DNA from: a virus
Lineage: Duplodnaviria; Heunggongvirae; Uroviricota; Caudoviricetes
Virus record (IMG/VR): IMGVR_UViG_2529293142_000033
Direction: 5' to 3' (one strand)
DNA: 54,512 nt
The position numbers and the translations under genes were made by a program. Shown piece after piece: positions 16,713 to 17,543 of the stretch. Position 1 is the first letter of the stretch; each line of letters begins with the position of its first letter. A model generated the notes under the pieces. The model searched no databases. It had not been told where the DNA came from and saw only the letters and a program-made list of their open reading frames with translations.

Positions 16713-16749
16713 TATTCCCTCAATTTTCTGTTTATAGAGGTTATTCGCA

Positions 16750-17244
16750 ATGCGTAATGTGTCGTTTGACGTTCGCTATTCCTTTCATCTTGAAACGATG
16801 ATGGCGACCCTGTACCGAAGGCTGGAATATCTGCTTTATTTTATTCTGATGCTGGCTGGTGGGCTTGTTCTGGCAGATGTGGGTAATACCGCGTTACAGG
16901 GGCTGGTGGTCATCATTGTTGCTTTCACCTCGCTCACACTTCGTCCCGCAAGAAATGCGCTGCTGTGTGAACGGCAGGCTGCAAGATACCGTGAGCTCAT
17001 GCATGATTTTGAGTTTCATCCGGATGAAACAGAGCTTCCCGATATGGATGAAATTGAGCTGCATGACAACACCGCAATTGGCCTGCTGAGGAATGCTGCA
17101 TACAAGAGAACGCTGATAGTGCTCGGGTATTCACAGGAGGCAAATGCCATTCATCTCACAATGATGGAGAAAATCGCAGCATGGTTTGCCGGTGATCTGC
17201 CGGAAGAGTGTGTGCCCGCTGGTGCAGTGGATAACGAAATCTGA
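16750..17244 (+). CDS. hypothetical membrane protein (two N-terminal TM helices, acidic C-terminal domain); moron at stx-equivalent position
   Basis: 164-aa ORF between tRNA cluster and lysis region, flanked by terminators on both sides. Confidence 0.55.
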   Translation: MRNVSFDVRYSFHLETMMATLYRRLEYLLYFILMLAGGLVLADVGNTALQGLVVIIVAFTSLTLRPARNALLCERQAARYRELMHDFEFHPDETELPDMDEIELHDNTAIGLLRNAAYKRTLIVLGYSQEANAIHLTMMEKIAAWFAGDLPEECVPAGAVDNEI

Positions 17245-17346
17245 AAATGCCTGTTTTCAGTTGAGAGATACGCTCCGGAAGACCAAACTGATTAACGCAA
17301 AGGTAATACATTTATTGTTTTGAAAATCCGATCAGCACGTTTGCTT

Positions 17347-17405
17347 TTCTGCCAGCTCCCCCAGAGCTGGCTTTTTTTGAGGTCTGCTCCGGCAGGCTTT
17401 TTTAT
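17347..17405 (+). terminator. tandem rho-independent terminators
   Basis: ccagctcccccagagctgg+T7 followed by ggtctgctccggcaggc+T6. Confidence 0.65.
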
Positions 17406-17543
17406 TTCCGCGCCACGCCCGGCGCATATCAAAAACCACAGAGCCTTACAGAAATGAGCTTCGGAGAAACACCGTAATAAGCGGCGGCTTCTCTGTGGGC
17501 GGTGTTTCTGGGCGACGAGGCTCATTTTTGTAAGGAGAGCGTG

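Follow-up and report, generated by a model that had tools for sequence, protein, structure and literature searches.

ORF164, a small membrane protein gene in the stx-equivalent slot of a tailed phage, as a putative stand-alone SLATT-like exclusion factor

The window analysed here is the whole of a 54,512-nt stretch of viral DNA (Caudoviricetes; IMG/VR record IMGVR_UViG_2529293142_000033), and the gene under study, ORF164, is an open reading frame (ORF) at 16750-17244 that begins with ATG and encodes a small inner-membrane protein of 164 aa; this gene and the features described below lie on the plus strand unless stated otherwise. Upstream is the late antiterminator gene Q (14975-15727; Pfam Antiterm PF03589, E 9e-54), whose DNA is 93-97% identical to the Q genes of Stx2c phages, SfV, mEp460, and Ayreon. 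Q is followed by a putative pR'-like late promoter (TTGCAT-16 nt-TAAAAT, ~15759-15786), by a tR'-type intrinsic terminator (AACCCGC-loop-GCGGGTT-T7, 15833-15857; from sequence and fold) whose counterpart is the terminator annotated after Q in phage Ayreon, and by four tRNA genes (CAU, Arg-UCU, Thr-UGU, and Gly-UCC; 16114-16423; ARAGORN, with Rfam scores of 55-71 bits). The promoter was read from the sequence and is absent from the output of a consensus scan; its location between Q and tR' is in keeping with lambdoid late regulation. Downstream, a lambda-family holin gene (20386-20733; Phage_holin_3_1, E 4.5e-20; NCBIfam holin_lambda) starts the lysis cassette and closes the cargo slot, and the placement of ORF164 between the tRNAs and the lysis region in a first-pass annotation of this DNA thus holds. 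Because the Q and tRNA region is ~93% identical to that of Stx2c-converting phages, the slot is truly stx-equivalent.

The ORF, its hydropathy, and an isoelectric point (pI) of 4.6 for residues 65-164 (19 D/E versus 9 K/R) agree with the earlier description of a 164-aa protein with two N-terminal transmembrane (TM) helices and an acidic C-terminal part. A GAGG Shine-Dalgarno sequence (16737-16740) stands 9 nt before the ATG, and use of this upstream ATG as the start is supported by the N-terminal 17 residues (RYSFHLETM), which are kept across the whole family. Hydrophobic segments occupy residues ~25-44 and ~48-64, with a 3-residue loop between them (Kyte-Doolittle, 19-residue windows), and four Arg ahead of TM1 and five Arg behind TM2 place both termini, by the positive-inside rule, in the predicted cytoplasm. 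The layout is therefore an N-terminal amphipathic helix, a transmembrane hairpin, an acidic linker (residues 83-110 hold 10 acidic and 0 basic residues), and a conserved helical C-terminal domain ending in AWFAGDLP; there is no signal peptide or secreted domain, and the bulk of the protein is predicted to be cytoplasmic. An AlphaFold2 model from 33 homologs (predicted local distance difference test score (pLDDT) 81.5, predicted template modelling score 0.73) was used instead of one from 5 sequences, which was unusable (pLDDT 54). It contains a long helix at 4-42 and helices at 47-64 and 66-89, all at pLDDT ~90; the acidic linker that follows is of low confidence, and the C-terminal domain is small and helical. 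The ratio of nonsynonymous to synonymous substitution rates (dN/dS) is ~0.3 against 87%-identical copies from other phages and, judging from such conservation, ORF164 is a real gene under purifying selection.

Hairpins with T-runs were found at all three sites at which the first-pass annotation had placed terminators, one upstream of ORF164 and two in tandem downstream. The upstream intrinsic terminator (16689-16715; stem 16689-16708 plus T7, an 8-bp stem with 5 GC pairs) folds at -11.7 kcal/mol (z -2.1) and is missing ahead of the 87%-identical gene copies in L026 and L029 (related loci are designated here by L numbers); it is probably the end of the tRNA transcription unit and not an insulator. 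The tandem intrinsic terminators (17351-17406; stems 17351-17371 and 17379-17400, each with a T-run) fold at -29.6 kcal/mol (z -3.3), a value equalled by 0 of 200 shuffles, and are kept with the gene in other aligned contigs representing at least two other phage backgrounds. Across the 3-kb region there are 9 terminator-like sites, versus 3.4 +/- 2.2 in shuffles. The 265-nt spacer from tRNA-Gly to the upstream terminator (16424-16688), which forms the left part of a swappable cassette, is common only to the closest relatives, L030 and L031, and has no ORF of note and no Rfam match (16424-16716 scanned); it may encode a small RNA that has escaped recognition and ends at the terminator, or represent the 3' trailer of the transcript with the tRNAs.

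The window clade, as we call ORF164 together with the relatives 56-99% identical to it (L030, L031, L026-L029, and L036), is found in four contexts, always co-oriented with the late operon and between Q or the tRNAs and a holin. The copy in L026 immediately precedes holin genes, and that in L036 immediately precedes a DUF1378 gene and a holin gene. A consensus scan of the 326 nt between tRNA-Gly and ORF164 found no promoter-like site on the plus strand, and the distance from the upstream terminator to the Shine-Dalgarno sequence is only 34 nt. The window and L026 are homologous from the Shine-Dalgarno sequence onward and again from the tandem terminators; because homology begins only at the Shine-Dalgarno sequence, the clade would possess terminators of its own and no promoter. 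The proposal that the terminators insulate a gene expressed in the lysogen is consequently not supported for this copy, given the absence of a promoter-like site, the 34-nt gap, and the co-orientation of the gene within the pR' late unit. As for stx, Q-modified polymerase would be expected to pass all of these terminators: tR', that of the tRNA unit, and the tandem pair. As ORF164 is co-oriented in a pR'-like unit past tR', under what resembles lambdoid late regulation, it is most likely expressed mainly after induction, in a Q-dependent manner, like stx. The two genes thus share a slot downstream of a 93%-identical Q/pR'/tR'/tRNA region and an orientation with the late operon; unlike stx, ORF164 encodes a small cytoplasmic-membrane protein that has neither signal peptide nor toxin fold and is not exported.

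ORF164 has no match in a Pfam scan, and to that extent the first-pass annotation was right that no family could be recognised; in PHROGs, the protein does match a family, phrog_6315 (E 1.4e-27), of unknown function. Only 8 close relatives came from a word-indexed search; when 1.84 billion cluster representatives were searched exhaustively with a HMMER profile, 205 (clusters at 50% identity) scored E <= 0.001 and, of these, 101 scored E <= 1e-10. Family members are mostly ~150-165 aa long and match end to end. All named sources annotate them as hypothetical proteins, and the named hosts are Enterobacterales; literature searches on the accessions, the PHROG identifier, and STM2734 found no mention of the family. 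With 101 contigs carrying the exact ORF164 protein and 590 a close variant, one or the other is seen on hundreds of E. coli contigs, and near-identical DNA of the locus occurs in 3 of 5,426 complete E. coli genomes. Homology to SieB was rejected (hhalign of the family profile against Rac SieB, probability 0.2%; no hit to Pfam SieB, PF14163), as were identification as a holin or lysis protein (no model match; heterogeneous linked lysis cassettes) and as a known defence system (no PADLOC match).

More distant relatives occupy several kinds of genomic position. In E. coli, a homolog with 45% identity is flanked by dicB/DicF and a DUF1391-repressor-ydaS-ydaT block, on the strand opposite the early-left operon; this is the exact position of sieB in Rac and corresponds to that of lambda sieB. 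An arrangement convergent with a cI-like repressor gene is shared by relatives in Citrobacter prophages, in a Providencia phage, and in seven contigs of viral or genomic origin (some of them near-duplicates; at least five sequences are distinct), and SieB is present in none of these cI-adjacent loci. A SieB-type location, between the early-left (pL) genes and the immunity region and on the opposite strand, is seen in L005, L008, L016, L019, L021-L025, and L035. In Xenorhabdus and Serratia prophages and one related viral contig, the gene occupies the gap between Q and the holin, antisense to the late operon, and in an Arsenophonus relative it adjoins the small terminase gene, convergently. In the P2-like phages Fels-2 (L002, NC_010463; 3974-4429, plus strand) and Yersinia vB_YenM_42.18 (L034; 2983-3453, plus strand), the family gene is antisense within the early operon and unannotated; the ORFs deposited on the opposite strand over these members, STM2733.1.Fels2 and vBYenM4218_008, are probably mis-calls. 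Judged by these placements, the ORF164 family is mobile cargo in slots where temperate phages keep exclusion genes. The likeness to SieB of lambda, P22, and Rac extends to protein architecture, in that SieB is an inner-membrane protein of ~160-190 aa with an N-terminal hydrophobic helix pair and a cytoplasmic C-terminus, and to the slot of ORF164 relatives next to the immunity region, opposite in strand to pL; the difference is that the sequences are unrelated and that ORF164 itself lies in the gap between Q and the holin, in the orientation of the late operon.

At every locus examined upstream outside the window clade (15-17 fetched loci, about a dozen distinct sequences), a proline-rich ORF of 26-45 aa ends within ~35 nt of the gene for the two-TM (2TM) protein, its stop codon often in or beside the Shine-Dalgarno sequence of that gene. 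Examples are MSDRYPNQPLRESDRENRPRPDSQVPYRPTERQPEPEPKK (L019), MFKTNIEHEQRHMPPYKRPEPEPKPKPKDE (L005, Citrobacter), and MSDSDNFHVLPRPAPAPKPEPGQDKK (Fels-2), and the core PDxQVPYRP is kept via synonymous-type codon changes. The upstream regions concerned are L008 5799-5992, L016 1852-2038, L019 7115-7340, L021 6118-6342, L025 2018-2208, L005 5901-5993, L010 5861-5992, L011 5856-5993, L002 3887-3967, and L035 3375-3491. In a subgroup, the leader comprises two hairpins, a 5' one and another, CTCCAT...ATGGAG, by which the ribosome-binding site of the small ORF (sORF) is masked; RNAalifold backs both hairpins, with little covariation among the seven sequences, and an Rfam search with the leader hairpins gave no match. 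The antisense-placed relatives must have a promoter of their own, and by eye one appears to be present in L008 and L016; consensus scans do not support it, promoter scores upstream of antisense-placed relatives being no better than in shuffles. The proline-rich sORF motif was looked for in the window and is absent. A 28-codon ORF (16671-16757), MSSYAFNRRIWRFFYSLNFLFIEVIRNA, runs across the upstream terminator and ends 5 nt past the ATG of ORF164, at the position of the coupled sORF of relatives; it has no Shine-Dalgarno sequence, shows no similarity to the proline-rich micro-ORFs, and is probably a chance ORF.

SLATT proteins have two TM helices and are predicted to act as pore-forming effectors in CBASS and DRT10 (PMC11381338; bioRxiv 10.64898/2026.04.29.721553). 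When each of 105 family members was scanned separately against NCBIfam, 42 matched SLATT_4 below threshold (best E 2.2e-5), 12 matched SLATT_1, and SLATT_5 and SLATT_fungal were each matched by 2, whereas the top unrelated family was matched by 9. None of 10 small phage membrane proteins that served as controls (two SieB, RexB, and seven membrane proteins of holin/lysis cassettes) matched any SLATT model at E <= 1. The alignment covers the hairpin and its flanks, with residues 24-94 of family member P0177 aligning to positions 19-99 of the 154 in the SLATT_4 model, and Pfam likewise gives faint SLATT_4 and PycTM hits within the family. Hydropathy and AlphaFold2 identify in ORF164 a two-helix transmembrane hairpin with cytoplasmic helices, as is typical of SLATT proteins, and a Foldseek search of predicted viral structures places SLATT proteins at ranks 1, 4, 13, and 14 (prob up to 0.85). 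Given 42 of 105 members against 0 of 10 controls, the comparison points to a remote, specific homology of the ORF164 family to the SLATT superfamily, short of demonstrated membership. Size, the order of helix, TM hairpin, and cytoplasmic helical region, and the conflict-related contexts are all similar to SLATT (NF033632 / PF18186); unlike SLATT, the ORF164 family is usually preceded by the 26-45 aa proline-rich micro-ORF instead of an enzyme partner, and its C-terminal domain (...EKxxAWFAGDLP) lies outside SLATT model coverage.

The sequence that carries ORF164 behaves as an exchangeable cassette. Its right boundary is a conserved junction element of ~85 nt made up of the second tandem terminator and a further ~60 nt (17378-17461), copies of which, 84-87% identical, are present in ~47 E. 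coli genomes and one phage record; in these, the element lies between tRNA-Gly and other cargo (TerB), upstream of the holin genes. A prophage of Shiga toxin-producing E. coli (STEC), STEC313, is 96% identical to the window over tRNA-Thr/Gly up to position 16424 and also has the junction (17386-17461) in common; in place of the ~960-bp cassette (16424-~17385), it contains an unrelated 416 bp, followed by TerB and holin genes. ORF164 is therefore supported as accessory cargo, and not a core lysis or structural gene, by the swapping of the cassette at fixed boundaries in STEC313 and by the occurrence of relatives in exclusion-gene slots; together with the remote SLATT likeness, these observations agree with the cargo reading of the first-pass annotation. 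With respect to the features of a moron, ORF164 shows presence/absence at a fixed site and has its own terminator (in at least three phage contexts), and fails in the consensus scan to show its own promoter.

We tentatively favour a reading, to which we would give a little less than an even chance, in which ORF164 is an accessory protein of a stand-alone, SLATT-like kind that perturbs the membrane and serves exclusion or abortive infection (Abi) in phage-phage conflict. The family would constitute a remote, stand-alone branch of SLATT (2TM effector) proteins, found mainly in Enterobacterales prophages, in which the transmembrane hairpins would oligomerise and, once triggered, permeabilise or depolarise the inner membrane; the resulting membrane damage would abort or exclude a competing phage infection, as with SLATT effectors, SieB, and RexB. 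Most members would be self-contained, each with its own promoter and with a leader in which the ribosome-binding site is masked, followed by a proline-rich micro-ORF translationally coupled to the 2TM gene, and these modules would adjoin the repressor or run antisense to a phage operon. The window copy would belong to a derived clade that has lost the micro-ORF and promoter and become embedded in the Q-antiterminated late transcript, so that the main production of ORF164 would follow induction or fall late in infection, with read-through levels at most in the lysogen. A more specific version is possible and, in our estimate, unlikely to hold in full: that the family is a new stand-alone SLATT-like exclusion/Abi module, controlled by a micro-protein and leader instead of a nucleotide-synthesising partner and replacing SieB in its slot, and that the window clade dropped this control and was wired into Q-dependent transcription.

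Several results weigh against a SLATT-like exclusion factor. ORF164 alone matches no SLATT model at E <= 1; the best family member reaches 24.8 bits against SLATT_4 (E 1.6e-5), and all members fall under the cut-off for membership (55 bits for NCBIfam NF033632, or the gathering score of Pfam PF18186). The Foldseek matches to SLATT have E values of 0.2-3 and are not statistically significant, searches of solved structures found only generic helical hairpins, and PADLOC-DB 2.0 defence models match neither ORF164 nor three diverse relatives. Characterised SLATT effectors act with a nucleotide- or cDNA-producing partner, and the lack of a conserved enzyme partner here thus counts against the proposal: at more than 20 related loci, as in the window, no CD-NTase, SLOG, TIR, or reverse transcriptase gene adjoins the family gene, and all-against-all clustering of neighbours identified no conserved protein partner except the sORF. 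Finally, the co-orientation of the window clade with late genes suits a role in the lytic cycle equally well.

Such a role is the strongest of the rival explanations, in which ORF164 is a lytic-cycle membrane protein that tunes lysis by its own phage, as a depolarising holin trigger or an antiholin-like timer. The orientation of the window-clade gene with the late operon, its position just upstream of the lysis cassette, and its lack of a promoter would all be explained, and the two TM segments with N- and C-termini inside recall class II holins and pinholins. However, the lysis cassettes beside the window clade are of three unrelated types, which argues against a cognate antiholin role in particular, and most relatives are remote from and unlinked to lysis genes, being placed next to cI or antisense to the late operon. 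ORF164 also differs from class II holins and pinholins in its large conserved cytoplasmic domain, the phage already has a lambda-type holin, and the family matches no holin model in Pfam, PHROGs, or NCBIfam beyond one chance-level hit. We therefore rate lysis tuning as improbable.

A toxin/antidote-type stabilisation module, in which the proline-rich micro-protein or the leader would control the 2TM protein as toxin and of which the window copy, without its micro-ORF, would be a tamed or decaying remnant riding the late transcript, would account for the coupled sORF in all examined loci outside the window clade, for the synonymous-type variation around PDxQVPYRP, and for the anti-Shine-Dalgarno hairpin, features typical of tightly controlled membrane toxins. 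We consider it very unlikely, since the window clade shows dN/dS of ~0.3 and is intact in four phage backgrounds, and the protein is as frequent on contigs (101 exact, 590 as the close variant) as noted above. A host-directed lysogenic-conversion factor acting in envelope physiology, stress tolerance, or virulence, and not directed at phages, would suit the stx-equivalent slot and such fellow cargo as a glycosyltransferase-9-like gene and, in other phages, TerB, and is equally hard to credit for a protein with no signal peptide or secreted domain and no evident lysogen promoter, whose relatives occupy exclusion-gene slots.

If ORF164 is indeed an exclusion or Abi factor, the known defence modules would gain a compact one, of one or two genes, from a moderately widespread family, and SLATT-type effectors would be able to work without a nucleotide or cDNA signal generator. 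ORF164 would also be a second example, besides stx, of non-lysis cargo under predicted Q-dependent late control, which bears on what Stx-type phages gain from the slot. The arrangement of micro-ORF and leader in relatives offers a directly testable regulatory model. Should ORF164 prove to be a tuner of lysis or neutral cargo, the finding would be an ordinary one.

The remainder of the cargo slot is also variable. Neighbouring the ORF164 cassette on its downstream side is a Rha-family regulator module (17544-18115; Pfam Phage_pRha, E 1e-30), whose end carries the terminator hairpin once more (18088-18109). The module thereby lies between direct hairpin copies (17379-17400 and 18088-18109) with the sequence GAGGTCTGCTnCGGCAGGCyTTTTT, and L030, which is collinear with the window, lacks exactly the Rha segment between the two copies; this suggests that the module was gained or lost by recombination at the terminators. 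Given that precise absence and the cassette swap in STEC313, the cargo slot is best regarded as a recombination hot spot bounded by conserved sequences. Encoded in L026 (448-5471) are a three-gene cluster that contains a subtilase and, together with specificity subunits, a methyltransferase of type IIG-like restriction-modification (E 3e-150). This defence-type cargo sits in the slot between Q and the lysis genes, upstream of an 87%-identical copy of ORF164 and, with restriction-modification genes at this position, the slot seems to collect cargo of this type.

The CAU tRNA gene (16114-16189) is called Met by ARAGORN and tRNA-Ile by RefSeq in a near-identical prophage; we take the latter call to denote the lysidine-modified type, like ileZ in Stx phages. 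The junction element is also present in a record named Actinobacillus phage vB_Apl-pPE4, an odd host attribution; as compared by product names, the TerB and lysis genes of that record are in the same order as in the E. coli STEC prophage. GC content rises from ~46-49% to 58-61% over 18750-21500, a stretch that takes in a weakly MptE-like ORF (18941-19513), the glycosyltransferase-9-like gene (19476-20411), which overlaps the start of the holin gene, the holin gene itself, and a lysozyme gene. The glycosyltransferase-9-like gene may be foreign cargo that modifies lipopolysaccharide and has become fused to the lysis block. Also in the cargo slot, a minus-strand ORF (18308-18802), likewise of 164 aa, has no Pfam or PADLOC match and is 99% conserved in two viral contigs that carry the same phage.

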